A model generated the notes under the pieces. That model did no database searches. It was not told the DNA's origin and saw only the letters and a program-made list of their open reading frames with translations. Shown piece by piece: positions 14,546-37,769 of a stretch of 45,318 nucleotides of DNA (position 1 is its first letter; the number at the start of each line of letters is the position of its first letter). Location of the stretch: NCBI GenBank assembly GCA_937895465.1, contig CALAYY010000042.1:1-45318 (forward strand). Reading direction: 5' to 3'. This DNA comes from an uncultured Clostridia bacterium (GTDB lineage: Bacteria > Bacillota > Clostridia > Christensenellales > DUVY01). The position numbers and the translations under genes are program-made.

Positions 14546-14621
14546 GGGCGATTAACTCAGTTGGGAGAGTGTCATCTTGACGTGGTGAAAGTCGAGGGTT
14601 CGAGTCCCCCATCGCCCACCA
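14546..14621 (+). tRNA. tRNA-Val (anticodon GAC)
   Basis: 76-nt cloverleaf folded by hand. Acceptor stem GGGCGAT/ATCGCCC, D stem ACTC/GAGT, anticodon stem TCATC/GGTGA with loop TTGACGT, T loop TTCGAGT (one A-C mismatch in the T stem) and encoded CCA. Confidence 0.85.
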
Positions 14622-18838: not shown

Positions 18839-18923
18839 GCGAGGATGGCGAAACTGGCAGACGCGCACGTTTCAGAGGCGTGTGGGGAAACCCATGCGGG
18901 TTCAAGTCCCGCTCTTCGCACCA
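18839..18923 (+). tRNA. tRNA-Leu (anticodon CAG), class II with a long variable arm
   Basis: Acceptor stem GCGAGGA/TCTTCGC (one G-U pair). Anticodon stem CACGT/GCGTG with loop TTCAGAG. Variable arm TGGGGAAACCCAT. T arm GCGGG-TTCAAGT-CCCGC. Encoded CCA. Confidence 0.9.
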
Positions 18924-22093: not shown

Positions 22094-23257
22094 TTAGTAT
22101 TTATTATTTTCCAAATATTTTATTTCGCCGTACGACATCAAAAACGGTCCCAACCCTTTTGCATCGTTTTGTACTACAGGCTCAGAAATATAATATTCGT
22201 AAGAGCCGTCACGCTTTAAGTTTTCTTTGGGTCCAAGTCCTGCCATAAGGCATATACCGCCAAGCTTGATTTTGCCCCTTTCACTTTTTAGATATTTTTT
22301 GCATATACCTTCAAATATTTCAATGCCTGTAATAATATAGTCTTGAGACAATATTTTTAGCCTTGCACCCTTTAAAACCGCATAAGCTACCATAGCACTT
22401 CCGCTTGTTTCTAAGTAATTACCCTGACAGCCGATGCAATCAACCACCTGATAAAACATCTTGAACTTTGGGTCAATATATTGAAGTACTCCATCAACCG
22501 CCTCAATAAATATTTGTTTTACGGTGTCTTTTTCTTTTTCGTGTGTATCTGACATGTATTCAAAAATATCAACAAGACTCATCAAAAACCAACCTATGGA
22601 ACGAAGCCAAAAACTTTTTGACAAGCCTCTTGAATCTGCCCAAAACGCTTCATGAGAATAATCAAAACCATGATAATAAAGGCGTTTTTGAGGGTCAAAC
22701 ATAAATTCTCTCACATTTTTTAACTGACTTATAATGTCATCATAATTTTGGCAATTGTTTATCAGCGTTTCATATCTTGTATAAAAAACTTGCGCCATAT
22801 ACAGTCCATCCAACCATATTTGATTGGGATATATAAGCTTATGCCAAAAGTTTCCTGACTCTGTTCTTGGCTGTCTTAGTAAATCGGCATATAGTATTTC
22901 TATTGCTTTTTTGTATTTATCCTTTTTGGTGTATTCATACAAGTCAAACAAAACCCTGCCGCCACATATATTATCAAGATTGTAACTTTCTGTCTTATAC
23001 TCCAATATTGTGCCGTCATCAAAAATATAATAATCGTAAAATTGATCTGCAAATTCCAAAAATCGCTTTTGCCCTGTATGCTTATACAAATTTATGAGCC
23101 CGATTATCATACAAGCGTCTATATAGTTCCATCTTGGTACAGAGCCTTCCAAAATTTTTTCCATATTCCATAATGGCTCTTTGGGTGTAGAACAGCTTAT
23201 GATATCGTCAATATACTTATCAATAATATTATTAAATTTTTTATTACTTTCGCTCAT
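22094..23257 (-). CDS. GH105 unsaturated rhamnogalacturonyl/galacturonyl hydrolase (YteR/YesR-like), cytoplasmic
   Basis: (alpha/alpha)6-type sequence with IWLDGLYMAQVFY and no signal peptide. The gene context is GH28 and kduID. Confidence 0.75.
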   Translation of the reverse strand: MSESNKKFNNIIDKYIDDIISCSTPKEPLWNMEKILEGSVPRWNYIDACMIIGLINLYKHTGQKRFLEFADQFYDYYIFDDGTILEYKTESYNLDNICGGRVLFDLYEYTKKDKYKKAIEILYADLLRQPRTESGNFWHKLIYPNQIWLDGLYMAQVFYTRYETLINNCQNYDDIISQLKNVREFMFDPQKRLYYHGFDYSHEAFWADSRGLSKSFWLRSIGWFLMSLVDIFEYMSDTHEKEKDTVKQIFIEAVDGVLQYIDPKFKMFYQVVDCIGCQGNYLETSGSAMVAYAVLKGARLKILSQDYIITGIEIFEGICKKYLKSERGKIKLGGICLMAGLGPKENLKRDGSYEYYISEPVVQNDAKGLGPFLMSYGEIKYLENNKY

Positions 23258-23265
23258 AATAACCT

Positions 23266-24810
23266 TTATTCAATCTCTATATTGTTAACATTGCATTTTA
23301 TTACAGTATCACCCTTAACATCGTTAAAACTAACATTTTTAAGTTTGACATTTTCTACATTGTTAAAATATAAGCCGTGTTTACAGCATTCCATAGCATT
23401 AGTCATCATTGCGGGTAGTCCGGGTTTTGAATCTTGTTTAAAAGAAAATTTTACATTTTCTATAATTATTTCCTTAATAGGCTGCTCAGGCAGACCGTAA
23501 AAAAATCCTGCCGTCTGCTCGCAGTCATTGCATACCATATCTTTAAAATGACAGCGTCCTATATAAGGCGTACACTCATCTACAGGTAATTTTTCTTTTG
23601 ACCAAACATATTCAGTCTTGCCGTCAGGGTCGCAAAAATAAAACATATTGACTACAATGGGGGATAAAACATTATCCATTTTGATATTTTCAAAAATAAT
23701 ATTATCTACTATTGCGTCAACACCCCTGCCCCTTCTTGTCTTAATTCGTAAACCTCTGTCTGTTTGGTTAAAATAACAGCGGCTTATTGACAGATTTTTT
23801 ATTCCGCCTGCAAGCTCACTTCCCAGAACAATAGCACCATGTCCGTATTGCATTATGCAATTTCTTATAATTACATTTTGACAAGGAGTTTTATATGTTT
23901 TGCCCATATAGATTTTCCCAGACTTTAACGCCACACAGTCATCTCCAACAGAAAATAATGAGCCTATAATTTTGACATTATTACAGGATTCAGGGTTGCA
24001 GCCGTCAGTATTGGGAGAATCTTTATCTGCAAAGACCTTGATATCAAAAAACGATATATTATTGCAAAAATAAGGATGAAAATTCCAGCTTGCAGAATTT
24101 TGACCAGTTATTCCATGAATAACAATATCTTCACATTTGTTCAAAAACAACAAACGGGGACGACCGTATTTATGTTTTTTGAAATCAGGATACCATATAC
24201 CGCTATGACCGTTGCCGTCGATTAAACCTTCACCTATTATTTTGATATTTTTGGCAAAGTGTGCACTAATATATGATTGATAGCAAGGCATAGGATGACC
24301 TTCCCATGAAGAATACTGAATCTTTTCCTTGGTAATTTCACATTCTATTTCGCCAGGGATTATCGGATAATCCTTCTCATCCTCGCTTGCCAGCATCTTT
24401 GCGCCTTTTTTTAGCTCTATAGTAATGTTGCTTTTCAAAGTTATGGGACGGGTATAATATATTCCTTGAGGAAACAGTACCCTCCCGTTTTCAGAACAAG
24501 CATTAATGGCATTTTGAACGGCTAGTGTGTCATCCGTATGCCCGTCTCCTATAGCACCAAAATCCATAACATTGATACAGCAGCTTTCTTGTGCTGTTAT
24601 TAATTCAAAACAAAAATCATTTAACGTTGTGCCGATTATATAACTTGTATTAGGCAATAAATCAAACAGCGAAAAAACATTAGTGTTAAATTCTTTGGAT
24701 TGTTTAACACCATCTACTATAATTTGATATGATAAGTCATTATAATATATAAGGTCGTTGTTAAGTTCAAAACAGACCGAAGTGCTTCCTATATACAAAG
24801 GTTTAAACAT
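23266..24810 (-). CDS. GH28 (exo-)polygalacturonase, cytoplasmic
   Basis: GH28 signature blocks NTDGCNPES, GDDCVALKSG, GHGAIVLGSE and RGLRIKT. No signal peptide. SD AAGGAG. Confidence 0.88.
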   Translation of the reverse strand: MFKPLYIGSTSVCFELNNDLIYYNDLSYQIIVDGVKQSKEFNTNVFSLFDLLPNTSYIIGTTLNDFCFELITAQESCCINVMDFGAIGDGHTDDTLAVQNAINACSENGRVLFPQGIYYTRPITLKSNITIELKKGAKMLASEDEKDYPIIPGEIECEITKEKIQYSSWEGHPMPCYQSYISAHFAKNIKIIGEGLIDGNGHSGIWYPDFKKHKYGRPRLLFLNKCEDIVIHGITGQNSASWNFHPYFCNNISFFDIKVFADKDSPNTDGCNPESCNNVKIIGSLFSVGDDCVALKSGKIYMGKTYKTPCQNVIIRNCIMQYGHGAIVLGSELAGGIKNLSISRCYFNQTDRGLRIKTRRGRGVDAIVDNIIFENIKMDNVLSPIVVNMFYFCDPDGKTEYVWSKEKLPVDECTPYIGRCHFKDMVCNDCEQTAGFFYGLPEQPIKEIIIENVKFSFKQDSKPGLPAMMTNAMECCKHGLYFNNVENVKLKNVSFNDVKGDTVIKCNVNNIEIE

Positions 24811-25399
24811 CCTGAAATTCTCCTTTTTTAAAATATTTTTTGAAGAATATCAGATTGCGTATTGTCAAAAACAAAAAGTCATAAATCAAAAAGAACAAGC
24901 CATATAATAGCGGCTCAACTGGCAAAACAACGCTTTCTTTTGGCAAATTTTTGATGTTAATAACCAAAACATTAATATAGCTGTATGTATAAGATATAAA
25001 TACTGACAACACCAAACCATATATCAGGTTAATAAGAATTGAATATATTTTCTTTTTTGAAAACATTATATATTTTCTCATTTTATTTTTATCATCATCT
25101 AACAAAATCAAAATCTTGTTGACTATTACATCAGTAACGAGTCCGATTGCAAGACCTAAACCTGCCATTACATCCAATTGGTCTATTGTGTTGTATGGTA
25201 TTCCCCAGCCTATAAAAAAGTAAATTGCACCCGCAAACCAATATTTTATAATAACAGCTTTTATGACAGCAGGAATCTTGGAAAGCCGAGAGTATTTATA
25301 CGGTCTAACCTCTTTCTCCGCATTTCTTTCTCCCCTATCCTGTTCGATTTCCTCATGCCTTATTGATTTTGATTTTGTTATTTCATTATTTATTTTCAT
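24803..25399 (-). CDS. Unknown membrane protein, 198 aa, ~4 TM, charged N-terminus
   Basis: ATG start overlapping the upstream ORF by 14 nt, and stop overlapping the GH28 start by 8 nt. Hydrophobic segments include KYWFAGAIYFFIGWGI, MAGLGLAIGLVTDVIV, IYSILINLIYGLVLSVFISY and LLYGLFFLIYDFLFL. No family was recognised. Confidence 0.6.
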   Translation of the reverse strand: MKINNEITKSKSIRHEEIEQDRGERNAEKEVRPYKYSRLSKIPAVIKAVIIKYWFAGAIYFFIGWGIPYNTIDQLDVMAGLGLAIGLVTDVIVNKILILLDDDKNKMRKYIMFSKKKIYSILINLIYGLVLSVFISYTYSYINVLVINIKNLPKESVVLPVEPLLYGLFFLIYDFLFLTIRNLIFFKKYFKKGEFQDV

Positions 25400-25919
25400 A
25401 ATCTATTTCAATTTTGTCATACGCCAATTGTTCTTGTTGTATTTGTTCTTGCTTTGTAGTGTTAATACGCTGAAACAATTTACTGTATAAAGGAAGTAAA
25501 AATATGCTTATAAGTGACAAGCTAAGCGACACTATATGAACATAGCTCCATACTATTGAAGCTGAAATATCAGGAGTTTTGGGCACTTCTTTGACCGTAA
25601 TTTCAAAATACAGAACATTAATATAATAAATATCAAGCACCAATTGCAAAATTATCAAGGCAACAGTCAAAATGATTACAGGTATAGCTTTTTTGTTTAC
25701 TTTTTTGACTGCAATAAAAGTAAAAACCGTCATAATAGATGCAAGAGTAATTATAAATAAATTAAAAGCTATTATCTTGTTGTTGACATACATTGTTGCG
25801 TTGGAATGTCGAGATAATAAAAATGTATAGATACAACAACTCAAAATCAAAAGAAGCATCGGTATTATCTGAGGATGTCTTTTGAGATAGACTAATTTTT
25901 TTCTAAAATATTCACCCAT
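25386..25919 (-). CDS. Unknown membrane protein, 177 aa, ~4 TM
   Basis: ATG with SD AGGTGA (5-nt spacer), 8 nt after the ATPase stop. It has four hydrophobic helices and a Q/E-rich C-terminus. No family was recognised. Confidence 0.65.
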   Translation of the reverse strand: MGEYFRKKLVYLKRHPQIIPMLLLILSCCIYTFLLSRHSNATMYVNNKIIAFNLFIITLASIMTVFTFIAVKKVNKKAIPVIILTVALIILQLVLDIYYINVLYFEITVKEVPKTPDISASIVWSYVHIVSLSLSLISIFLLPLYSKLFQRINTTKQEQIQQEQLAYDKIEIDYENK

Positions 25920-25927
25920 TATTTCAC

Positions 25928-26995
25928 CTATCTTAACGCCTTAGTTGTTTCTTTATCAAAGAAATGAATTTTATCTGTCAAAAAGTCAATCTTAATTTTA
26001 TCGTTTTGTTTGAAGCTGTGCCATCCTAGAATTTTTAAGATTATTCTTTTTTTGCCTATATAACCATGAACATTGGTGTATTGACCTAGATTTTCATTGA
26101 CATTTACAGTTATTTCTATATCATTTCCTAAAACAGCATTTTCAGGTCTTATTCCAAGCACAATCTCTTTTCCCATATAATCTTTTAAAATGTCTTTTTC
26201 TGCCTGTTTAAGTTCAATTTCAAAACAATCGTGCTTTAATGTTCCGTTATGTGTAACAAGCACATCCAAAAAATTCATTGCAGGCAGTCCGATAAAGCCT
26301 GCTACAAAAATATTGGCAGGATGATCGTATAATTCTATCGGTGCTCCTATCTGCTGCACATATCCATTATTCATAACTACTATTCTGTCTGCCAAAGTCA
26401 ATGCTTCTATCTGGTCATGTGTAACATAAATCATAGTTGAATTGAGCGTTTGGTGTAAAAGCTTCAGTTCATGTCTCATCTTTCCTCTTAATTTGGCATC
26501 CAAATTGCTAAGCGGCTCATCAAATAAAAACACCTTGGGATTTCTAACTATTGCTCTTCCTACCGCAACCCTTTGTCTCTGTCCGCCTGACAGTTGTTTT
26601 GGTTTTTTATTGAGCTGATTAACTAATCCCAAAAGTCTTGCTGCCCTCATTACCTTTTCGTGAATTACATCTGCATTGACTTTTCTGAGCATAAGACTAA
26701 ATGCCATATTATGATATACTGTCATCTGATGGTACAAAGCATAATTTTGAAAAACCATAGCAATATCCCGATCTTTTGGGGGAGTATTTGTTACATTTTT
26801 ATCATCTATAAATAATGTTCCGGACGATATCTCTTCAAGTCCCGCTATCATTCTAAGCGTTGTGGATTTTCCGCAACCCGAAGGACCTACAAAAACGATA
26901 AATTCCCCATCGTAAATATCCATATCAAAGTTATATACGGCGTGTACACCGTTTGGATAAATTTTATTCAATCCCTTTAAAGATAAATTTGCCAT
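25928..26995 (-). CDS. MsmX/UgpC/MalK-type sugar ABC transporter ATPase (copy 1)
   Basis: Walker A GPSGCGKST, signature LSGGQRQRV, Walker B VFLFDEPLSNLD, H-loop VTHDQ and a C-terminal MalK/TOBE-like domain. The start is revised to ATG at 26995 (MANLSLKGLNKIY), with GAGGA upstream. Confidence 0.9.
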   Translation of the reverse strand: MANLSLKGLNKIYPNGVHAVYNFDMDIYDGEFIVFVGPSGCGKSTTLRMIAGLEEISSGTLFIDDKNVTNTPPKDRDIAMVFQNYALYHQMTVYHNMAFSLMLRKVNADVIHEKVMRAARLLGLVNQLNKKPKQLSGGQRQRVAVGRAIVRNPKVFLFDEPLSNLDAKLRGKMRHELKLLHQTLNSTMIYVTHDQIEALTLADRIVVMNNGYVQQIGAPIELYDHPANIFVAGFIGLPAMNFLDVLVTHNGTLKHDCFEIELKQAEKDILKDYMGKEIVLGIRPENAVLGNDIEITVNVNENLGQYTNVHGYIGKKRIILKILGWHSFKQNDKIKIDFLTDKIHFFDKETTKALR

Positions 26996-27000
26996 TTGGG

Positions 27001-27450
27001 TCAATCCTCGCCTTGTAAGATTAAATATTTTAAATATTCTCTTAGTATTGTGGATCTTGTATAACAAAGAATTGCTGAGATTATTAATACAAGTCCTGAT
27101 AATGAGTAAAACATAAAAATAAGTAAAAAGATGATAATTTTCAATTGTCCAAATAAATAAAATCTAAGAGGAACAATAAATATTCGCAAAACCTGTATTG
27201 CTCCCATTATTGCCAAAATGTATGACCAACTCTTATTATACGTTTTGGATTTTTCTGCTCCCATAAAACCCAATATCATAAAAACTATATTATAAACAAT
27301 ATCAATACCTATATAATAATCAGGCATGATTTTTCTGTTTTCATTAATTAAAAAGATGCATACTACATTAAATAATATTGAAAGAATACATAACCAGAAC
27401 GATGCTATATTGTTCTGATAACGCATTCTTTCGCCGTTTAGTCTAGCCAT
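27001..27450 (-). CDS. Unknown membrane protein, 149 aa, ~4 TM
   Basis: The start is revised to ATG at 27450 (MARLNGERM), with a strong SD GGAGGT at a 5-nt spacer. It overlaps the upstream ORF stop by 8 nt and ends 5 nt before the ATPase start. No family was recognised. Confidence 0.65.
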   Translation of the reverse strand: MARLNGERMRYQNNIASFWLCILSILFNVVCIFLINENRKIMPDYYIGIDIVYNIVFMILGFMGAEKSKTYNKSWSYILAIMGAIQVLRIFIVPLRFYLFGQLKIIIFLLIFMFYSLSGLVLIISAILCYTRSTILREYLKYLILQGED

Positions 27451-28078
27451 GATGTACCTCCGATAAACGCTCTTGCGCAAGAGCATAAACTTTTTTATCC
27501 ATCTTTTCTTCTTTTTTCATCATTTTGGTCTTGAAAATCAAATTAACAACAACCAAAACGGCTTCAATAAGCATTAAAACTCCTAATACTATTCCTAAAT
27601 CAAAATAAAAAGTAGATTTGACATATCTGTAATTTGGAAAGTCCTGCGTGTTTTTATAATATTGTTCAAAATCAACTTTGAGGTACTCAATTCTAAAATT
27701 AACAACATTGACAATTATAATAATCGCTAAAACAACAGCAATAATTGAAAATAATATTGAAGTTATATAGTTTGACAAATAATACTTTCTTCTGGTATGA
27801 GTAAAAAACACAAGCATTGAAATCCCTGAAATAATAAATAATATTGAACATACAAATAATAACTTATTAAAATCCTGAACCAAAAAATATATTTCAGAGC
27901 CTTTTACATATAAGAATGATTTATCGGTAAAATAAAATAGCTCATATACATCAGTAGAAAAAAGCAAAGAGTAAGCTAAGATAAAAAATGTCAAAATAAA
28001 TCCTGATTTTATAATGGGCTTTTGCATCTTCTTAGCCAAAGTAAAAATATCTTTTTTGGACTTATTATTATTATTCAT
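27443..28078 (-). CDS. Unknown membrane protein, 211 aa, ~4 TM
   Basis: ATG with AAGGA upstream. It has a lysine-rich N-terminus, four hydrophobic helices, a Y/F-rich loop (FRIEYLKVDFEQYYKNTQDFPNYRYV) and a charged C-terminus. No family was recognised. Confidence 0.65.
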   Translation of the reverse strand: MNNNNKSKKDIFTLAKKMQKPIIKSGFILTFFILAYSLLFSTDVYELFYFTDKSFLYVKGSEIYFLVQDFNKLLFVCSILFIISGISMLVFFTHTRRKYYLSNYITSILFSIIAVVLAIIIIVNVVNFRIEYLKVDFEQYYKNTQDFPNYRYVKSTFYFDLGIVLGVLMLIEAVLVVVNLIFKTKMMKKEEKMDKKVYALAQERLSEVHHG

Positions 28079-28112
28079 AAAAGTCCTTACTCCTTTTAGA
28101 ATATTTTGAATT

Positions 28113-28139
28113 CATAAGGGGATTATAAATCCCCTTATG
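28113..28139 (-). other. Intercistronic stem-loop downstream of the SBP gene (likely mRNA stabiliser or partial attenuator)
   Basis: Perfect 11-bp stem CATAAGGGGAT/ATCCCCTTATG with a 5-nt loop, 15 nt after the SBP stop. No U-tract follows. Confidence 0.6.
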
Positions 28140-28154
28140 AAAACTAAAGAACAA

Positions 28155-30254
28155 TTATTTATTATTCATTGCGCTGTAAGCAGCACGTGCAGCAGTTAAG
28201 AATAGCTTTTGATTCCAGGTAGTTTCTATCTGGGTAATTAAAGCTTCTTTACTTAAAAGAGTTGTTTCGCCTTTTGTTCCTTCAAAACCATATTGAACAT
28301 AGTCACTAAAAGCAAAACCTCTTGTAGCACTGTTAATCGTAAAGTTGGTGTTCAATAATGTCAAACCGCTTATAGCAGTTTGTTGTGTTTTGGTATAGGC
28401 AAGTGTTGTAGGCATAGAATGCAATCTCTTATCAGACTCGCTATTAGGATTAACTGACAAGTGCTTGATAGTTCCAAGCTCAATAGCCTTCAAAATATTG
28501 TCTAAGCCTACTTGACCCTTAGGATGAACACATTGATATTCCATACCCTGTTCTTTTACATAGCCGATAGGGAATGTTCCGCCCAAGAAACGACGGTAAT
28601 AGTTAGTATAGTTGCCTGCAGCATAAAATTGAAGCTCTTCTAAAGCTGCAGCAGAAAGCTTGGGAACCTGCTTGCCGTTATATTCTATTGTGCCGTCAAT
28701 CCACTTTTCAGGACCAAAAGACATCAAACGATTGCCTTCAGTAGAATACATGTAATCAATAAGCATTAACGCTCTTTCGCGCTTAGCTTGAGATGCAGAA
28801 GCAAGTATTGCCCATCCATCAGCTTTTACAGAACGCCAAGAATCAGTAAACCTTGTGTAATTATCATAGCCCCAATCTGCAAAAGGAGGCAAAACAGGAG
28901 TAAGATTAAAATCGGTTATGGTTTCGTCAAGCTTGTTAACTACTGTAGTAGTCTGGTTGTAGTCATAAGTCATAAAACCGAGGTTTTGTGCATTAAGTCT
29001 GTTGCGATGGCTTTTTTCGTTTGCATAAGAAGTACCCGATGTTGCATTGTCATTATGAAAATCAGGCAAAATCAAGCCTTCAGCATATAGATTATGTAAC
29101 CTTTCCAATCCATCCATTGTTGATTGTTGTACTCTGGCGTCTTGTAGTTTACCTTCTTTGTCAATATACAACCAGTTAATACGGGCATCCATCCCTCTTA
29201 CGCCCCAGATTTCCATAAAACGCATAAGGTCCATAACTCTGTCATTGGTACTCCATCTGGGATAGAAAGGTATTATGTTAGCTTCCGCATTGCCGTTAAG
29301 AAGAGCAGGGTTAGCCTTAACACATCTTAATAAAGCAACTAATTCGTCAGCATCATAAGCTGCGTTGACACCTGTAAATAATTCGGAACGCTTGGTACCA
29401 AATTTGTTATTATAAGTGGTATCAATATAACTTCTTAATGCTTTAGTCAAAGTCTCACCGTTTTTGGTTGAAAGTTCATTTTGAACTTTAATTATATTTT
29501 TAGCATAATTTTTGGTGATTGTTTCTGTTGCGCTTTTGTCAGCTTTTACTACCGTAAACTGTTTGTTTAAGGTATCAGGCATATAATTGGTATACTGTGT
29601 CTGAACTGTTGCAGCAGTATCAAAAGTAGGTTCGTTTGAACCGTCAAGCAACTTTTGAACCCAATCAACACGCATCATAAACATTCTTTCTAGGTCATCA
29701 TAACCGTCGAAATACGGTGCATAAAACATCTGTCCTTCGCCGGCAACGATAGTTGTTTTAACGATGCTATTATTATCCAAAAACTTCTTAAAATTAGGCA
29801 TTTTGTCAAGATATTGTTTGAGGTCAACAAATCTATTGTTTGTGATACCTTCCTCAATAATATCATTGCCGCCGCCGTTAATCATATCTATACCGCTGAA
29901 ATTGCCTGCCTGTGAAAAACTCCACTGTTCTGTCAGATTCTTGTATTTTCCTGCATAAGATAAGTCATTGATATCAAAATTAAATTTTTTACCTAATGCG
30001 TTCCAAACCGGCTTAATATCGCCGTCACGGTATCTGACGCCGTCAGCAGCAAGGTAACCGCCGTCAGCATGCTTATTGCCTTGGTTATAAGTCATATAAG
30101 CATTGCTGTCATACATAATTGCCATATTTAATGTAAGCTTTTCGTCTGTAGAAAAGCCGGTGTCTTCTTTGTCACATCCGATAAAACTACCGGCAAAACA
30201 AGACAATAAGAAAACCATAATTAAGCCTAGTAATAATGATTTTTTTGTTTTCAT
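28155..30254 (-). CDS. Extracellular sugar-binding lipoprotein, LplA-like (family 1 SBP), unusually large (699 aa)
   Basis: Signal peptide with a lipobox (LLSC/FIGC). Overall LplA/YtcQ-like character. The start is revised to ATG at 30254 (MKTKKSLL), with GGAGGG upstream. The ORF-track TTG at 30266 lies inside the SD. Confidence 0.75.
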   Translation of the reverse strand: MKTKKSLLLGLIMVFLLSCFAGSFIGCDKEDTGFSTDEKLTLNMAIMYDSNAYMTYNQGNKHADGGYLAADGVRYRDGDIKPVWNALGKKFNFDINDLSYAGKYKNLTEQWSFSQAGNFSGIDMINGGGNDIIEEGITNNRFVDLKQYLDKMPNFKKFLDNNSIVKTTIVAGEGQMFYAPYFDGYDDLERMFMMRVDWVQKLLDGSNEPTFDTAATVQTQYTNYMPDTLNKQFTVVKADKSATETITKNYAKNIIKVQNELSTKNGETLTKALRSYIDTTYNNKFGTKRSELFTGVNAAYDADELVALLRCVKANPALLNGNAEANIIPFYPRWSTNDRVMDLMRFMEIWGVRGMDARINWLYIDKEGKLQDARVQQSTMDGLERLHNLYAEGLILPDFHNDNATSGTSYANEKSHRNRLNAQNLGFMTYDYNQTTTVVNKLDETITDFNLTPVLPPFADWGYDNYTRFTDSWRSVKADGWAILASASQAKRERALMLIDYMYSTEGNRLMSFGPEKWIDGTIEYNGKQVPKLSAAALEELQFYAAGNYTNYYRRFLGGTFPIGYVKEQGMEYQCVHPKGQVGLDNILKAIELGTIKHLSVNPNSESDKRLHSMPTTLAYTKTQQTAISGLTLLNTNFTINSATRGFAFSDYVQYGFEGTKGETTLLSKEALITQIETTWNQKLFLTAARAAYSAMNNK

Positions 30255-30362: not shown

Positions 30363-31244
30363 CTATTCCTTTACGCCGCCCATATTCACACCTTTAGCAA
30401 AATACTTTTGTATATAAGGATAGATAATAATTATTGGTATTATTGCACACACAATCATTGCATATATCAATGATTCGGGCGCAAAGTCTGTTATAACTGT
30501 TCCGTTTTCAGAAGTAAGGTCATCCAATGTTTGTCTAATATAAACCTGAAGCGGCCATTGATAATGATTTCGTATCATTATTCTCGCCCAAAAAAATCCG
30601 TTCCAGCGGCTAATTGCAAAGAATAATGTCACTGTAGCAATAGTCGCCTTGCACATAGGTGCATACACCTTGAATAGAAGCTGAAGCTCAGTTGCTCCGT
30701 CAACAGTTGCTGCCTCTTCTATTTCTTTGGACACGCCTTCAAAAGCATTTCTAAGAAGCACCACATTAAATGCAGCCATTCCCATTGCAATTACTACCAG
30801 CCATTTGTCATCACTAACACCAAAAAAGTCAAATACATTTTGGGTGGTCTTATAATTCATTAGCTGTGGAACTAATCCTGCGGTAAACCAAAGAGTAAAA
30901 ACCAAAAAGAAATTTAAGCCTCTTCTAAATACCAAACGCTTTTTTGACAGCGCATACGCTCCCAGCATGGCAACTAATAATGCCCAAATAGTCCCGTAAA
31001 AGGTCACAAACAATGTATTAGCATAACAAACCCAAAACTGTTTGTTATTAATCACCGCACCAAATGCATCAAATTGTATATCAACAGGCAATAATATAAC
31101 CTTGCCTTCATTAAAAGCATCTCCACCGCTTATTGCCGCTGAAAACGCATAAACAAAAGGATATAAACACATAAGTGCGAATATAACCAAAAATACATTT
31201 GCTAATATTTTAAAAATTAATTCTGAAGCTTCTACTCTTTTCAT
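30363..31244 (-). CDS. Sugar ABC transporter permease (LplC/YteP-like, CUT1)
   Basis: Six-TM pattern with EAA loop EEAATVDGATELQLLFKVYAPM. ATG at 31244 follows SD GAGGTG. Confidence 0.85.
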   Translation of the reverse strand: MKRVEASELIFKILANVFLVIFALMCLYPFVYAFSAAISGGDAFNEGKVILLPVDIQFDAFGAVINNKQFWVCYANTLFVTFYGTIWALLVAMLGAYALSKKRLVFRRGLNFFLVFTLWFTAGLVPQLMNYKTTQNVFDFFGVSDDKWLVVIAMGMAAFNVVLLRNAFEGVSKEIEEAATVDGATELQLLFKVYAPMCKATIATVTLFFAISRWNGFFWARIMIRNHYQWPLQVYIRQTLDDLTSENGTVITDFAPESLIYAMIVCAIIPIIIIYPYIQKYFAKGVNMGGVKE

Positions 31245-31254
31245 AAACACCTCG

Positions 31255-32373
31255 TTAATACAGTGAAGTCTCTGACACTTTTCGGCTGACCATGTTTGAA
31301 CCTATAACTAGAAGCATAGACAACACCGCAGCCATTAAGTCTGCTGCTGATGCTAATGCCTGATTGGTGTTCTCTTGTCCACCGTCCATACCTGCCATTC
31401 TAAAAACATAAGTTGATACTATATCTGCTGTGCTATAAATTTCCTTGTCATAAAGTAATAGTACTTTTTCGTATCCTATGGACAAAAGTCCTCCAAGATT
31501 AAGAATAAGCATTATTGTAATAGTCGAAGCCATACCGGGCAACACTACATATCTTAACTGAGCAAGCTTAGAAGCACCGTCAATTTTTGCCGCCTCATAG
31601 CTTGTCGGTGAAATACCTATAATTGCCGCAAAGAAAACAATCGAATTATATCCTGCTGTCTCCCAAATCCCTGAAATTTGATATATTGCTCTAAAATATT
31701 TTGGTACTCTCAACATTCCGCGATAGGCATCTTCACTTGAGACAAGCCCGATTTTATCAAAAAATTGAGCTAAAATTCCCGGTTCGGCAAAGATTGAGCC
31801 GCCCTTTAACAACATAGTTATTAGAGTTGTAATTACAACTGTTGAAACAAATCTAGGCAAATATGTGCATATCTGAATAGAACTTCTTAGTATGTTAGAT
31901 TTTACTTCATTAAAGAATAGTGCCAGTATTATAGGAACAGGAAATCCAAATAATAGCCCGTAAAAGCTTATCATAAAGGTGTTTCTAAAAGCCTGCCAAA
32001 ATCCTGCAGAATCCTCTCCAAAAATAAGCTTATAAAAATAGTTTATTCCCACAAACTCTCTATCAAAAATCTGAACAGTAGTGTCGTTAACTTTAAAAGC
32101 GCCTATAAGACCGTACAAAGGCATATACCGCCATAAGAAAAACACCAAAACCATAGGCAAAACCATAAGATACAATCGCCAATCTTTTATAATCTTCTTA
32201 CCGATATTCTTCCAGTAGTGCTTTTCCAGTTCATCTAAAACTGCAATATTGACCTTTTCTTCAAGTTTTTGAGTTGATTCAGAGTCATCCATGGAAATGG
32301 CTATTTTATCAATGCTTTTTTTAAGGATAGTTTTTGAAGCATCCTGACAATTGATTTTATCAATTTCAGCCAT
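31255..32373 (-). CDS. Sugar ABC transporter permease (LplB/YtcP-like, CUT1) with a ~60-aa cytoplasmic N-terminal extension
   Basis: EAA loop YEAAKIDGASKLAQLRYVVLPGM. The start is revised to ATG at 32373 (MAEIDKIN), with GAGGAGGG upstream. Confidence 0.85.
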   Translation of the reverse strand: MAEIDKINCQDASKTILKKSIDKIAISMDDSESTQKLEEKVNIAVLDELEKHYWKNIGKKIIKDWRLYLMVLPMVLVFFLWRYMPLYGLIGAFKVNDTTVQIFDREFVGINYFYKLIFGEDSAGFWQAFRNTFMISFYGLLFGFPVPIILALFFNEVKSNILRSSIQICTYLPRFVSTVVITTLITMLLKGGSIFAEPGILAQFFDKIGLVSSEDAYRGMLRVPKYFRAIYQISGIWETAGYNSIVFFAAIIGISPTSYEAAKIDGASKLAQLRYVVLPGMASTITIMLILNLGGLLSIGYEKVLLLYDKEIYSTADIVSTYVFRMAGMDGGQENTNQALASAADLMAAVLSMLLVIGSNMVSRKVSETSLY

Positions 32374-34409: not shown

Positions 34410-35834
34410 CTATTCTGAATTTGTTTCCCCTACCTTCAAATTATCAATTATATTTTTCTCTTTTATCTTTTTAAGATAAATAATGCAAATCACAAGTGAC
34501 ATCAACCCTATTCCTGCATTGCTTATAAGCATTGCTATTCCGATGCTTTCCGCGCCAAGATTAGTTAAATTAATCATTATAGCCAGCGATGGAATTCTAA
34601 ACACAAACAATCTAGCAAGATTAACTACCATAGAAGCTTTGGTAAACCCGTATCCGTATAAAAGCCCCAATGTAGATTGATTGATTCCGAGCGCTATTAT
34701 GCCCATCTTTTCATAAGCAAATATCTTATCCACAAGACTTGCAAATTGCATATCTCCTTTGGCATAAAATCTTATTATAGGGTCATTAAATATTGTCAAT
34801 AATACAGTTCCCAAAATGCCCAGCACCATATTGAGAATAAAAGAGTAATAAAAAGCTTTCATTGCTCTGTCCTTGTTTTTGTATCCCAAGTTGGTACTGA
34901 TAATTAGTCCTGAGGATTCTTCAACACTTGCCATTACATTATTGACATATCCACCCATGTTGTTAGATATCCCCAATGCACCCACGGCTTTGTCGCCATA
35001 ATGGGAACACATTGCATTGACAATAACCTTGCCAAGATTAAAAACAAACCTTCCTAAAAAGATGGGGAATGACAGCACGAAAACAGGTTTGAGATAATCT
35101 CTTTTCAGACTTTTATCTTTAAATGAAAATCTGAAAATATAATTGGGCATCAGCAGTCTTATAACAACAAACAAAGTAAGCATCAGATTGGCGATAAGTG
35201 TTGAAGCCGCAATCATTACAAGACCTTGATGAAAGATTTTGATAAACATATAAGATAAAGTAATTTTTATTATCATTATCATTATGTTTATTCCCAAAAT
35301 AGTTACAGTCTGTCCTCTTGCTTTTTCAAGTCCCATAAAGATGTTGTTAAACAGCATTATACCTACAGTTACAATCTGCACCATAAAGTACTGTGAGCCA
35401 ATCTTAATAAGATTGTTTGGAGTTCTTGCAATCCTTAATATAGATGTTGCTAAAGGTACGCACACTGCTATTACGGAAAGTCCTATCACTCCTGCCAAAA
35501 ACAGCAATGTATTAGCCATGGTTTTTGCGTTTTTAAAATCATTTCTGCCTATCAGCCTCGACACCAAAATCATACCGCCGCTTGCAAAGCCTGACCCTAG
35601 TGACATAATGAGGTTGGTTAGTTGTCCTATTACAGCTACTGCTGATATTGCTGATGAGTCAATTTCCGCCGCAATGATAGAATCAATTATTGTGTATAAA
35701 TAACTCAAAGCATTTATCAGAAAAAGCGGTAAAGATATTTTGAATATTACTGCCCACAAATTTTTGGTCACAATAAATTCACGCAGTTTTCTGTCTGATT
35801 CTTTTACATTGCCCTTTTGTATAGTTTGGGTCAT
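34410..35834 (-). CDS. MATE-family transporter
   Basis: About 12 TM in 474 aa with a two-fold repeat, and an N-terminal region typical of MATE/NorM-like proteins. SD AGGTGG. It starts 7 nt after the stop of ATPase 2. Confidence 0.7.
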   Translation of the reverse strand: MTQTIQKGNVKESDRKLREFIVTKNLWAVIFKISLPLFLINALSYLYTIIDSIIAAEIDSSAISAVAVIGQLTNLIMSLGSGFASGGMILVSRLIGRNDFKNAKTMANTLLFLAGVIGLSVIAVCVPLATSILRIARTPNNLIKIGSQYFMVQIVTVGIMLFNNIFMGLEKARGQTVTILGINIMIMIIKITLSYMFIKIFHQGLVMIAASTLIANLMLTLFVVIRLLMPNYIFRFSFKDKSLKRDYLKPVFVLSFPIFLGRFVFNLGKVIVNAMCSHYGDKAVGALGISNNMGGYVNNVMASVEESSGLIISTNLGYKNKDRAMKAFYYSFILNMVLGILGTVLLTIFNDPIIRFYAKGDMQFASLVDKIFAYEKMGIIALGINQSTLGLLYGYGFTKASMVVNLARLFVFRIPSLAIMINLTNLGAESIGIAMLISNAGIGLMSLVICIIYLKKIKEKNIIDNLKVGETNSE

Positions 35835-35841
35835 ATACCAC

Positions 35842-36933
35842 CTAGCTGTTTATTGTCATATTAGTTTGAGCGTCAAAAACATATAAGCTCGTATAAGGTA
35901 TAGCAAAATTACAATTGCAATTAATTGGAGGTATGTTATAAGGCGATACTCTCAAAATAATTCTGTTATTGCCCATATACGCATAAACATTGGCATTATC
36001 GCCAAGTAATTCGGTTAGTTCTGTTTGTGCTGCCAAAATCAAAGAATTAGGCACATCTTTATCGCCGCAAGTGGTAATTGCTTCAGGTCTGAAACCAAGT
36101 ATTATATCTTGCTTGTTGTACCTTGAGGCTATATCAGGAAATAGTTTCTTAAAATCAAAGGATAATTCGCAACCCTTAATAAAAGCTGTTCCGTTAGAAA
36201 GACTGCATGGCAAAAAATTCATAGGCGGGTCGCCTATAAACCCTGCAACAAATCTATTGGCGGGATGAAAATATAGTTCGTGCGGAGTACCGACCTGTTG
36301 AATATATCCGTCTTTCATTACCACGATCCTATCAGCCATTGTCATTGCCTCGACTTGGTCATGTGTAACATATATCGTGGTGGCATTGGTCTTTCTGTGT
36401 ATTTCAATTATTTCGGAACGCATTGTAGTACGTTGTTTTGCATCCAGATTGGAGAGAGGTTCATCCATCAAAAATACTTTAGGATACCTTATTATCGCTC
36501 TGCCGACAGCAACTCTTTGACATTGACCGCCTGAAAGTTCTCTAGGCTTTCTGTCAAGATAATCACTAAGCCCAAGTACCAAAGCTGTTTCTTTTACTCT
36601 CTTTTCAATAAAATCTTCATCATAACCCTCAAGTGTCAGTCCAAAAGCCATATTTTCATAAACATTGAGGTGCGGATAAAGCGCGTATGACTGAAATATC
36701 ATTGCAATTCCTCTTTGTTTGGGGGTTTTGTTATTGACAAGCTCTCCGTCAATAAACATCTTCCCTTTAGTAATAACTTCCAAGCCTGCAATAATACGAA
36801 GCATTGTGGATTTGCCGCAGCCTGAAGGTCCTACAATAACCAAAAATTCCCTATCATTGATGTTTAAATCAAAAACAGCTTGAAAACCGTTGTCATAAAT
36901 TTTATTGATTTTTTCCAAATAAATTTGCGCCAT
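35842..36933 (-). CDS. MsmX/UgpC/MalK-type sugar ABC transporter ATPase (copy 2)
   Basis: Walker A GPSGCGKST, signature LSGGQCQRV (Cys in place of the usual Arg), Walker B VFLMDEPLSNLD and H-loop VTHDQ. ATG at 36933 (MAQIYLEKINKIY) overlaps the upstream stop by 1 nt. Confidence 0.88.
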   Translation of the reverse strand: MAQIYLEKINKIYDNGFQAVFDLNINDREFLVIVGPSGCGKSTMLRIIAGLEVITKGKMFIDGELVNNKTPKQRGIAMIFQSYALYPHLNVYENMAFGLTLEGYDEDFIEKRVKETALVLGLSDYLDRKPRELSGGQCQRVAVGRAIIRYPKVFLMDEPLSNLDAKQRTTMRSEIIEIHRKTNATTIYVTHDQVEAMTMADRIVVMKDGYIQQVGTPHELYFHPANRFVAGFIGDPPMNFLPCSLSNGTAFIKGCELSFDFKKLFPDIASRYNKQDIILGFRPEAITTCGDKDVPNSLILAAQTELTELLGDNANVYAYMGNNRIILRVSPYNIPPINCNCNFAIPYTSLYVFDAQTNMTINS

Positions 36934-37769
36934 CAGTTCTTTCCCCACAATTTTCTTACTAACTTGACTGCCGGTTCGATGTTTTTGCCTGTCGTTCCTT
37001 CAAGCACTAAAACAGCGTCTTTATCATAATCTTTTATAAGCTTTAATATCTTAGGATAGTTCATTATCCCATTGCCCAAAGGTACTTGTTTTAACTTATT
37101 GTCTTCTACGATGTAATCTTTGAGATGAAAACAATGAATATTATCAAATGTTTTCAATCCGTCTTTTAATATGTCTTCATAGTCGTTATGATTGCTGATG
37201 TCTAAGTAGTTATAAATGTCAAAAATTATTTTCAGGTTTTTTCTGTCAATCATATCAACTGCTCTTTTTAGTGTCTTTACATCGTAGCAAACATGTCCGA
37301 AGGCCCCTTCTATTGCCACAAACGCCTTGTTTTTTGAAGCATAATCGCAAAGTTCTTCAAAGGTCTTTACAACTATTTTTAATGCCTCATCCGTTCTGTT
37401 TTTTGGATTGTATGTCCATTTGTCATCGTTGTGTGAGCCTGTTTCTGATCCTACGATATTACAGCCTATTAAATTGCCAAATTTCAAATATTCTTTAAAA
37501 ATCTGTATTCCCAACTTGACCTTATCAATATTGCTATGTACTGGATTGAAATAAGCACCAAGTAGGAATATTTTTTTTGATACGTTATCAAAAAAATGCT
37601 TTATCTTTTGGGCTTTTTTTTCATCTAATTGTCCGTTTAAATAAGCTATATCTTGAAATGTCTTATATAAGACAAGTTGCACACCTTCAATATCAAGAGT
37701 TTTTAGCAAATCAGAAATCACGCTTTCATCGTTTTCTTGCAAATCGTGACATCTTATTGCCAGTTTCAT
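36933..37769 (-). CDS. Sugar phosphate isomerase/epimerase-like TIM-barrel protein (xylose isomerase-like fold)
   Basis: About 280 aa with family-typical segments (VAIEGAFGH, FHLKD, VLEG). Its ATG overlaps the kdgK stop by 1 nt. The substrate is unknown. Confidence 0.55.
   Translation of the reverse strand: MKLAIRCHDLQENDESVISDLLKTLDIEGVQLVLYKTFQDIAYLNGQLDEKKAQKIKHFFDNVSKKIFLLGAYFNPVHSNIDKVKLGIQIFKEYLKFGNLIGCNIVGSETGSHNDDKWTYNPKNRTDEALKIVVKTFEELCDYASKNKAFVAIEGAFGHVCYDVKTLKRAVDMIDRKNLKIIFDIYNYLDISNHNDYEDILKDGLKTFDNIHCFHLKDYIVEDNKLKQVPLGNGIMNYPKILKLIKDYDKDAVLVLEGTTGKNIEPAVKLVRKLWGKN

Follow-up and report, generated by a model that had tools for sequence, protein, structure and literature searches.

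Orphan membrane protein families and a dedicated ATPase clade at a uronate-oligosaccharide ABC importer locus of uncultured Bacillota

The window, by which we mean the whole stretch of DNA analysed here, comprises positions 1-45,318 of contig CALAYY010000042.1 from an uncultured Clostridia bacterium. Within a long uronate operon on its reverse strand lie four small genes, A, B, C and D, each coding for a membrane protein predicted to have four transmembrane (TM) helices, and between B and C stands the gene for an ATP-binding cassette (ABC) ATPase of the MsmX/MalK type, hereafter the embedded ATPase. A to D are real genes under purifying selection, they are tied to this module, and they belong to no known family. 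Directly upstream are the genes for an AlgQ-like substrate-binding protein (SBP), two permeases and a fifth orphan membrane protein, M0. The locus best fits the description of a type I ABC importer for uronate oligosaccharides that is accompanied by five conserved families of orphan membrane proteins and by an ATPase clade of its own. The A-D/M0 module is widespread in uncultured gut and digester Bacillota and undescribed as far as our searches show, and literature searches returned no description of any of these proteins. We consider it probable that A to D constitute a conserved membrane assembly that is functionally tied to the embedded ATPase and to the AlgQ-type importer.

Few membrane machines are understood as well as the type I carbohydrate ABC importers, whose accepted make-up is an SBP, two permeases and two ATPase subunits. 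Conserved in this widespread importer lineage are five further membrane families that have no record in Pfam, NCBIfam, the Protein Data Bank (PDB) or the literature. Should these proteins be subunits of the importer, the textbook stoichiometry leaves out components of an ecologically important uptake route for pectin and uronates in uncultured gut Bacillota; should they instead make up a machine of their own, it would represent a new architectural class of ABC machine in these bacteria. Either way, five new protein families are defined, with clear motifs, a natural fusion and a compact, directly testable operon.

Conservation and spread of the A-D block

The preliminary description of this DNA had listed five closely packed open reading frames (ORFs) between the SBP gene and a gene of glycoside hydrolase family 28 (GH28), and their order, sizes, spacing and Shine-Dalgarno (SD) motifs were reproduced exactly from the ORF list and the sequence. 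Read from A to GH28, the first two genes overlap by 8 nt, gaps of 5 nt and then 8 nt flank the ATPase gene, C and D overlap by 14 nt, and the end of D overlaps the start of GH28 by another 8 nt; SD-like motifs stand 5' of A (AAGGA), B (GGAGGT) and C (AGGTGA). The further proposal that A to D are real, co-expressed and unrecognised genes has stood up well, both in the order of the block and in the selection acting upon it. The exact A-D protein sequences occur as gene calls on 5-9 independent metagenomic contigs, in each case without a name. In a relative at about 50% identity (L001) all block genes are intact and in the same order; A to D are 50-56% identical to those of the window and the adjoining enzymes 62-83%. 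Between these two loci the proportion of nonsynonymous differences (pN) in A to D is 0.27-0.31 and that of synonymous differences (pS) 0.70-0.73, which indicates purifying selection; the corresponding dN/dS of about 0.14-0.19 is only rough because dS is saturated.

For a wider view, 48 loci were fetched from species-representative genomes with the better-conserved SBP as the query, of which 44 are informative in that the contig reaches far enough, and homologues were sought among the locus ORFs by iterative hidden Markov model (HMM) searches. All 48 come from uncultured Bacillota, covering Clostridia, Christensenellaceae, Oscillospiraceae, Defluviitaleaceae, Erysipelotrichaceae and RF39-like Bacilli. 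The block A-B-ATPase-C-D lies directly 3' of the SBP gene in the same order in 42 of the 44 informative loci, with SBP identities of 35-56%, well beyond what chance would give, and the ATPase gene stands between B and C in every complete block (42/42). The arrangement of two membrane genes, an ATPase gene and two more membrane genes thus recurs, and syntenic relatives are free of frameshifts, which were the two comparative checks suggested at the outset. Syntenic A homologues number 45, and homologues of A to D remain intact, with their conserved motifs kept, at 17-56% identity in more than 40 loci. A reading of A to D as spurious or decaying frames in an AT-rich spacer around the ATPase gene could draw on the low local G+C content (26-30% at 25-28 kb) and on the want of family matches; it is refuted and has next to no probability, given frames intact across such divergence, pN well below pS, hundreds of sequence clusters and confident AlphaFold models.

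The two exceptions among the 44 differ in kind. In one (L049:7442-13366) M0, the two permeases, the SBP, A, B and a divergent C are present, with no ATPase and no D, and the operon ends after A-B-C; a gene for a 2,094-aa surface protein follows this variant block. In the other (L020) the only likeness is an SBP-like domain in an unrelated secreted protein of 1,181 aa. This protein is encoded on a high-GC Oscillospiraceae contig (L020:60-3605) with no permeases and no A-D genes nearby. Found in addition was a variant (L058:7646-10828, also L059) composed of a B-like gene, the ATPase, C, D, GH28 and GH88, where no M0, permease, SBP or A gene occurs within ~8-10 kb; directly upstream in L058 a pectinesterase gene lies on the opposite strand.

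The families extend well beyond these loci. An exhaustive HMMER search with the A-family profile gave 325 representative clusters at 50% identity (E <= 1e-3), 207 of them at E <= 1e-10 and almost all of 175-250 aa, and the D-family profile gave 74 clusters with a sharp score cut-off, all of them hypothetical proteins. It was the exhaustive search that revealed the A family, a k-mer-seeded search with A having found one relative only; a search with the A2 profile was saturated by low-complexity words and scored 4 proteins. Distant family members, sampled independently, occupy the same slot, with a large Pfam-less SBP followed by A, B, the ATPase and C. The sources are metagenome-assembled genomes from rumen, from human, chicken, rabbit, goat and termite gut, and from anaerobic digesters. 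Across the related loci the setting is always one of uronate catabolism, with GH28 after D in 39 loci and, in addition, GH88, KduI, KduD, UxaC and KdgK. In one locus (L060:510-9988) the full nine-gene module adjoins a heparinase II/III-type polysaccharide lyase gene instead of pectin genes, and the module is therefore not restricted to pectin loci.

Family searches, topology and natural fusions

None of A to D matches a Pfam or NCBIfam model above its cutoff. The highest score among the four is that of A to CD20 (26.8 bits against a cutoff of 27.9 bits), a match seen in 1 of 138 A-family members. When Pfam was run over all family members (46 of A, 45 of B, 42 of C, 42 of D and 46 of M0, plus 138 diverse A-family representatives) no consistent family emerged; the commonest match reached 3 of 42, and all such matches were weak and of the tetraspan type (MARVEL 2/46, claudin 3/42, tetraspanin 1/138). 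More pointed comparisons gave the same outcome. YesL/DUF624 (PF04854), the family that the preliminary description had named and set aside, matches none of A, B, C, D and M0 at E <= 1, nor any scanned member. The lack of an EAA loop in A to D, unlike both permeases, was likewise correctly noted: PF00528 is without a match to A-D at E <= 1 or among scanned family members, and no EAA-like motif can be found in cytoplasmic loops of only 8-17 residues. The S-, T- and CbiM/N/Q-type families of energy-coupling factor (ECF) transporters find no match among the membrane proteins in Pfam or NCBIfam; DctQ and TctB, the small 4-TM subunits of the tripartite ATP-independent periplasmic (TRAP) and tripartite tricarboxylate (TTT) transporters, appear in none of the Pfam scans of the window proteins or the families; and the Pfam and NCBIfam scans of the window proteins show no sensor or signalling domain. 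Profile searches against all PDB sequences returned nothing for B, C, D and M0 and only noise for A.

Structure comparison proved no more revealing. The AlphaFold2 model of D, built on a 60-sequence alignment, has a predicted local distance difference test score (pLDDT) of 82.7 and a predicted TM-score (pTM) of 0.73; it shows four long helices, and the cytoplasmic TM2-TM3 loop contains a further, short helix of four residues. Foldseek found no match for it in the PDB (best E-value 1.5, TM-scores <=0.35). The A family was modelled within a natural A-B fusion, where pLDDT exceeds 90 across the whole A half and four long helices are again seen, and here too Foldseek returned nothing significant (best E-value 0.08). 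Compact matches of the A fold are to generic four-helix bundles, namely uroplakin/tetraspanin, synaptogyrin, the FcεRI β chain and de novo maquettes. Against tetraspan structures the A fold gives Foldseek E >1 with a query-normalised TM-score (TMq) <=0.32, and values of 0.40-0.52 arise only when the score is normalised on the target (TMt) for small targets (8jj5_D, 8a6m, 8k7t_B) or de novo four-helix bundles. The tetraspan likeness appears to be one of generic four-helix packing and is no evidence of homology or shared function.

Nor is any of the five families (A, B, C, D, M0) detectably related to another by profile comparison. A shared layout had led to the suggestion that the 211-aa and 177-aa proteins, A and C, are paralogues, and this did not survive: hhalign gave a probability of 28% over TM2-TM3 and, with a deeper alignment, 17% over a different segment, TM4, against 99.7% for the positive control. 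A few A members match the C HMM at 1e-5 to 1e-6. For B-D, A-D, A-B, B-C, C-D and M0-D, hhalign found no relationship.

The four hydrophobic helices that had been counted by eye in each small protein are confirmed as four hydrophobic segments by Kyte-Doolittle analysis and, for D and the A family, as helices in the AlphaFold models. Basic residues mark the termini and the TM2-TM3 turn, in keeping with a topology that places both N- and C-terminus inside (N-in/C-in). In A, the predicted cytoplasmic TM2-TM3 turn HTRRKYYLSN (R96-x-x-Y99-Y100-x-x-N103) is by far the most conserved segment, with a relative entropy of 3.0 against a protein mean of 1.6 and with R96, Y99, Y100 and N103 conserved at 98-100%; its outer loops are rich in aromatic residues. 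Conserved in B are R10-Y11 and K69-x-Y71, both on the cytoplasmic side, together with G48-x-D50-x3-N54 in TM2 and R89; in C, K13, F55, H128 (TM4), P143 and K/R151-I152. D begins with 36 disordered, charged residues and conserves P43, K52, W54 and G57 at the inner end of TM1, followed by G66, G86, D90, N124, P163 and D174. Judged from these alignments and the predicted topology, conservation in A to D is concentrated on the cytoplasmic loops and on buried polar residues (D50, N54 and R89 of B, H128 of C, and D90, N124 and D174 of D).

Two natural fusions join A to B: P0136 (354 aa, L064:4047-5111) and P0154 (353 aa, L068:545-1606), which share 42% identity. The halves match their own family HMMs at E = 1e-35 to 1e-41, the C-terminal half aligns with family B at an hhalign probability of 99.7%, the cluster of P0136 holds four full-length members on separate contigs, and both fusions fill the A+B slot between SBP and ATPase. 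By Rosetta-stone logic such fusions suggest a joint action of A and B at a ratio of 1:1, and the N-in/C-in topologies of the two would allow a fusion of this kind. A scan of all ORFs and retrieved proteins showed no other fusion architecture, neither with the permeases nor with the ATPase; what looked like a C-D fusion in L050 proved to be an artefact of a masked run of N. Insertions point to the same topology. C of L068 (2695-4254) reaches 519 aa through the insertion of ~320 aa of acidic, soluble sequence into the TM3-TM4 loop, which is predicted to face outward; smaller inserts occupy the same site in L028 and L029, and some A-family members carry inserts in outer loops. These large inserts support the predicted topology and show the loops to be exposed.

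The importer core, its two ATPases and the role of A to D

The SBP profile matches the PDB sequences of AlgQ1, AlgQ2 and Smon0123, all of them binding proteins for uronate oligosaccharides, at E = 1e-19 to 1e-12. The match is confined to residues 310-603, the N-terminus is lipoprotein-like, relatives range from 663 to 888 aa, and the SBP matches nothing in Pfam or NCBIfam. Both permeases belong to PF00528 and show a readable EAA-x3-G-x9-I/V-x-L/A-P motif. Together with a MalK-type ATPase, this SBP and the two permeases make up a formally complete type I (CUT1-like) importer, and the view that the importer is complete without A to D accordingly holds. Signal peptides are lacking in GH28 and GH88, and the oligomers would thus be cleaved in the cytoplasm after import. 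M0, overlooked in the preliminary description along with a second MsmX-like ATPase and a hairpin between the SBP gene and the block, is present in essentially every related locus (~45 loci). It occurs in two size classes, ~190 aa in Clostridia-type loci and 255-283 aa in Bacilli-type loci, the latter with a C-terminal extension bearing an LLDGGTL motif, and it has no match in Pfam, NCBIfam or the PDB.

The embedded ATPase carries the Pfam domains ABC_tran and OB_MalK and scores 464.6 bits with the NCBIfam model UgpC, above its cutoff of 432 bits, and 153 bits with ECF_ATPase_1, below the cutoff of 315 bits. Its nearest PDB relatives are 7x0q, Bacillus subtilis MsmX (6yir, E = 1e-105), Thermococcus litoralis MalK and AlgS (4tqu_S). 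The embedded ATPases are monophyletic (43/43), being ~64% identical within their clade and ~49% to a second clade. Both ATPases are present in the window, where they are 50% identical, and in 18 other loci; ~26 loci have no second ATPase within 10 kb. The second gene may lie directly 5' of M0, overlapping it by 8 nt in L018 and standing 11, 37 and 110 nt upstream of it in L019, L016 and L042. The embedded clade is marked by substitutions at three otherwise canonical positions: the proline of YALYPH (residue 89) is replaced by A in 65%, G in 23% and His in the window; AFGL becomes AFSL at residue 100 (98%); and FLMDEP becomes FLFDEP at residue 158 (100%). The second clade and MsmX keep the canonical residues. 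These clade-specific substitutions adjoin the Q-loop and fall in the helical subdomain, where residues 89 and 100 flank the first helix, which from MalFGK2 structures we take to line the groove for the permease coupling helix.

Comparison with known systems sharpens what is unusual here. The AlgM1M2SS-AlgQ2 system of Sphingomonas sp. A1 and Smon0120-0123 of Streptobacillus moniliformis are, like this locus, type I importers that take up oligosaccharides containing uronates through two EAA-loop permeases and are powered by a MalK-type ATPase, and our SBP resembles AlgQ1/AlgQ2/Smon0123 as the ATPase resembles AlgS. No components beyond an SBP, two permeases and an ATPase dimer are known for those systems. 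Here, in contrast, the operon has conserved five orphan membrane proteins beyond that set (M0, A, B, C and D), and the SBP is ~200 aa larger, lipid-anchored and below all Pfam thresholds for SBPs. The MsmX-dependent pectin importers of B. subtilis (YtcQP-YteP, LplABC, YesOPQ) are likewise CUT1 systems of Bacillota that take up pectic oligosaccharides with an MsmX-type ATPase, and share one orphan MsmX, whereas here a dedicated ATPase clade sits between four orphan TM proteins, often beside a second MsmX-like ATPase. A 2024 genome-wide structural survey modelled the MsmX-dependent importers of B. subtilis, LplABC and YtcQP-YteP among them, as MsmX2 plus two permeases and an SBP, and the word "accessory" is absent from it (PMC11466899). 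Three further groups bear a looser likeness. YesL/DUF624 proteins are also small polytopic proteins of unknown role in Bacillota carbohydrate ABC operons, with no sequence relationship to ours. In ECF transporters (CbiMNQO, BioMNY) several small membrane proteins are likewise encoded around an ABC ATPase gene and assemble with its product, whereas here the ATPase is of the MalK/UgpC type with an OB/TOBE tail, and an SBP and EAA-loop permeases are present. Eukaryotic tetraspans (MS4A/CD20, MARVEL/synaptogyrin, tetraspanin/uroplakin, claudin/PMP22) share the N-in/C-in four-helix topology, with all Pfam matches sub-threshold.

We tentatively favor the view that A to D, and perhaps M0, are accessory TM subunits of an SBP-permease1-permease2-ATPase2 importer of uronate oligosaccharides, a proposal to which we give somewhat less than even confidence and in which both the physical assembly and the part played in transport are deduced from the genes. 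The embedded nucleotide-binding domain (NBD) is close to MsmX and the full cassette always accompanies this SBP/permease set; moreover, the variant L049 keeps A-B-C beside the permeases and SBP despite having lost the ATPase and D. NBDs of the MsmX/AlgS-like type are known only alongside EAA-loop permeases, and both permeases here carry an EAA loop. Counting for this view, too, are the constant position of the block behind the SBP gene in a uronate setting, purifying selection, the A-B fusions, the ATPase clade peculiar to the module and the weight of conservation on the cytoplasmic face. In such an arrangement A to D would be four subunits of one assembly around the embedded ATPase, with one pair made up of A and B and another, probably, of C and D. 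Docking on the ATPase dimer, or on the permeases from the cytoplasmic side, could be the task of the conserved turns and juxtamembrane motifs at that face, and the aromatic-rich, insert-tolerant outer loops would face the large lipoprotein SBP or its acidic oligosaccharide cargo. Imported oligogalacturonides would then be cut in the cytoplasm by GH28 and GH88 and pass into the KduI/KduD/UxaC pathway.

Several points weigh against the view of A to D as accessory importer subunits. We know of no accessory TM subunit in any CUT1 importer. If it is the embedded ATPase that serves the permeases, the presence of another MsmX-like ATPase in the window and near the module in 18 other loci is difficult to account for, and L058 possesses B-ATPase-C-D with no permeases or SBP within the ~8-10 kb around it. 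Inside the TM helices, Asp, Arg and His residues are conserved, which points to a role beyond that of a scaffold. The tight translational coupling takes in soluble GH28 as well, and coupling alone is therefore no evidence of a complex. Finally, the A-B interface cannot be read from the fusion model, since its B half rests on two sequences and has a low pLDDT of 50-78.

The alternative that fares best, one we regard as possible and still doubtful, is that A-B and C-D are the membrane halves (8 + 8 TM helices) of a separate ATP-driven transporter or machine powered by a dimer of the embedded ATPase, with the permeases energised by the second MsmX-like ATPase where the operon has one or by a shared MsmX encoded elsewhere, and with both machines serving the uronate pathway. 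Bacillota CUT1 operons often lack an ATPase of their own and share MsmX. The gene order resembles TMD(A,B)-NBD-TMD(C,D), where TMD stands for transmembrane domain, and the hairpin parts it from the SBP gene; A and B are fused as one 8-TM protein in two lineages; two ATPase clades coexist in the window and 18 loci, the second sometimes directly before M0, and it is from the embedded clade that the proline of YALYPH and the glycine of AFGL have disappeared; no permeases lie near the B-ATPase-C-D genes of L058; and polar or charged residues are conserved inside the TM helices. However, the embedded ATPase is strongly MsmX/MalK/AlgS-like, as its match to B. subtilis MsmX attests, and to our knowledge no MsmX-type NBD drives membrane domains without EAA loops. 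A to D have no EAA-like coupling helix, their loops being short and the four-residue helix being found in D only. Some 26 loci lack a second ATPase within 10 kb, L049 has A, B and C with neither ATPase nor D, L058 is without A, and in the loci sampled the full cassette is never found apart from this SBP and permease set. A related formulation, which we hold to be rather unlikely, is that A-B and C-D would represent a hitherto unknown kind of ABC membrane domain, built of 4 + 4 TM pieces without an EAA loop and served by a dedicated, groove-modified ATPase, beside or together with the canonical importer.

We judge it unlikely that A to D instead support the use of uronate oligosaccharides outside any ABC transporter, with the ATPase gene lying between them through inherited gene order alone. 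They might, for example, provide an ion or counter-ion pathway for polyanionic substrates, anchor or dock the SBP or surface enzymes, or act as a sensor. Simple, tetraspan-like four-helix bundles with a weak likeness to scaffold-type families (CD20/MS4A, MARVEL, tetraspanin, claudin) would suit such functions, as would the mid-membrane Asp residues conserved in D, the Asp and Arg in B, outer loops that take large soluble inserts and a translational coupling that includes soluble GH28. Against this, the ATPase gene holds its place between B and C in every one of the 42 complete blocks, deeply diverged as these are, and its clade is specific to the module; the strongest conservation lies on the cytoplasmic (ATPase) face and not on the outer face, and the domain scans found no sensor or signalling domains.

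Layout of the operon and minor features

Coordinates of the block and of its neighbours are collected in Table 1. The upstream part of the long operon runs from KdgK and AP_endonuc_2 through the second ATPase, MatE and UxaC to M0 and onward.

Table 1. Features of the uronate operon and other elements located in the window.
Feature	Coordinates	Strand	Basis or remark
A, 4-TM protein, 211 aa	27443-28078	-	ORF list, hydropathy, homologues
B, 4-TM protein, 149 aa from ATG (longest ORF 161 aa)	27001-27450	-	
Embedded MsmX/MalK/UgpC-type ABC ATPase, 355 aa from ATG, C-terminal OB/TOBE domain	25928-26995	-	
C, 4-TM protein, 177 aa	25386-25919	-	
D, 198 aa, 4 TM helices	24803-25399	-	
GH28 polygalacturonase-like enzyme	23266-24810	-	without signal peptide
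GH88 enzyme	22094-23257	-	without signal peptide
SBP, 699-aa lipoprotein, AlgQ1/AlgQ2/Smon0123-like	28155-30254	-	PDB profile match
Permease 2, BPD_transp_1 type, EAA loop EEAATVDGAT...AP	30363-31244	-	translation, Pfam PF00528
Permease 1, BPD_transp_1 type, EAA loop EAAKIDGAS...LP	31255-32373	-	translation; PF00528 on identical gene in L002
M0, fifth orphan polytopic membrane protein, 192 aa	32366-32944	-	overlaps permease 1 start
Second MsmX/MalK-type ATPase, same operon, different clade	35842-36948	-	
MatE-family efflux gene	34410-35834	-	between second ATPase and UxaC
Hairpin, perfect 14-bp stem, between SBP stop codon and gene A	28111-28141	-	
tRNA gene	14546-14618	+	Rfam
tRNA gene	18839-18920	+	Rfam

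The hairpin has a folding energy of -25.6 kcal/mol (z = -5.0 by RNA folding) with no T-run after it, and it stands between the SBP gene and the A-B-ATPase-C-D block. Its likely role is to stabilise the SBP transcript or to attenuate read-through in part, so that the SBP would be expressed above the level of the downstream genes. Scans for promoter and terminator consensus sequences inside the operon gave nothing above shuffled expectation, and Rfam matched nothing in the window but the two tRNA genes. A MatE gene inside the uronate operon recurs in L001 and L002.

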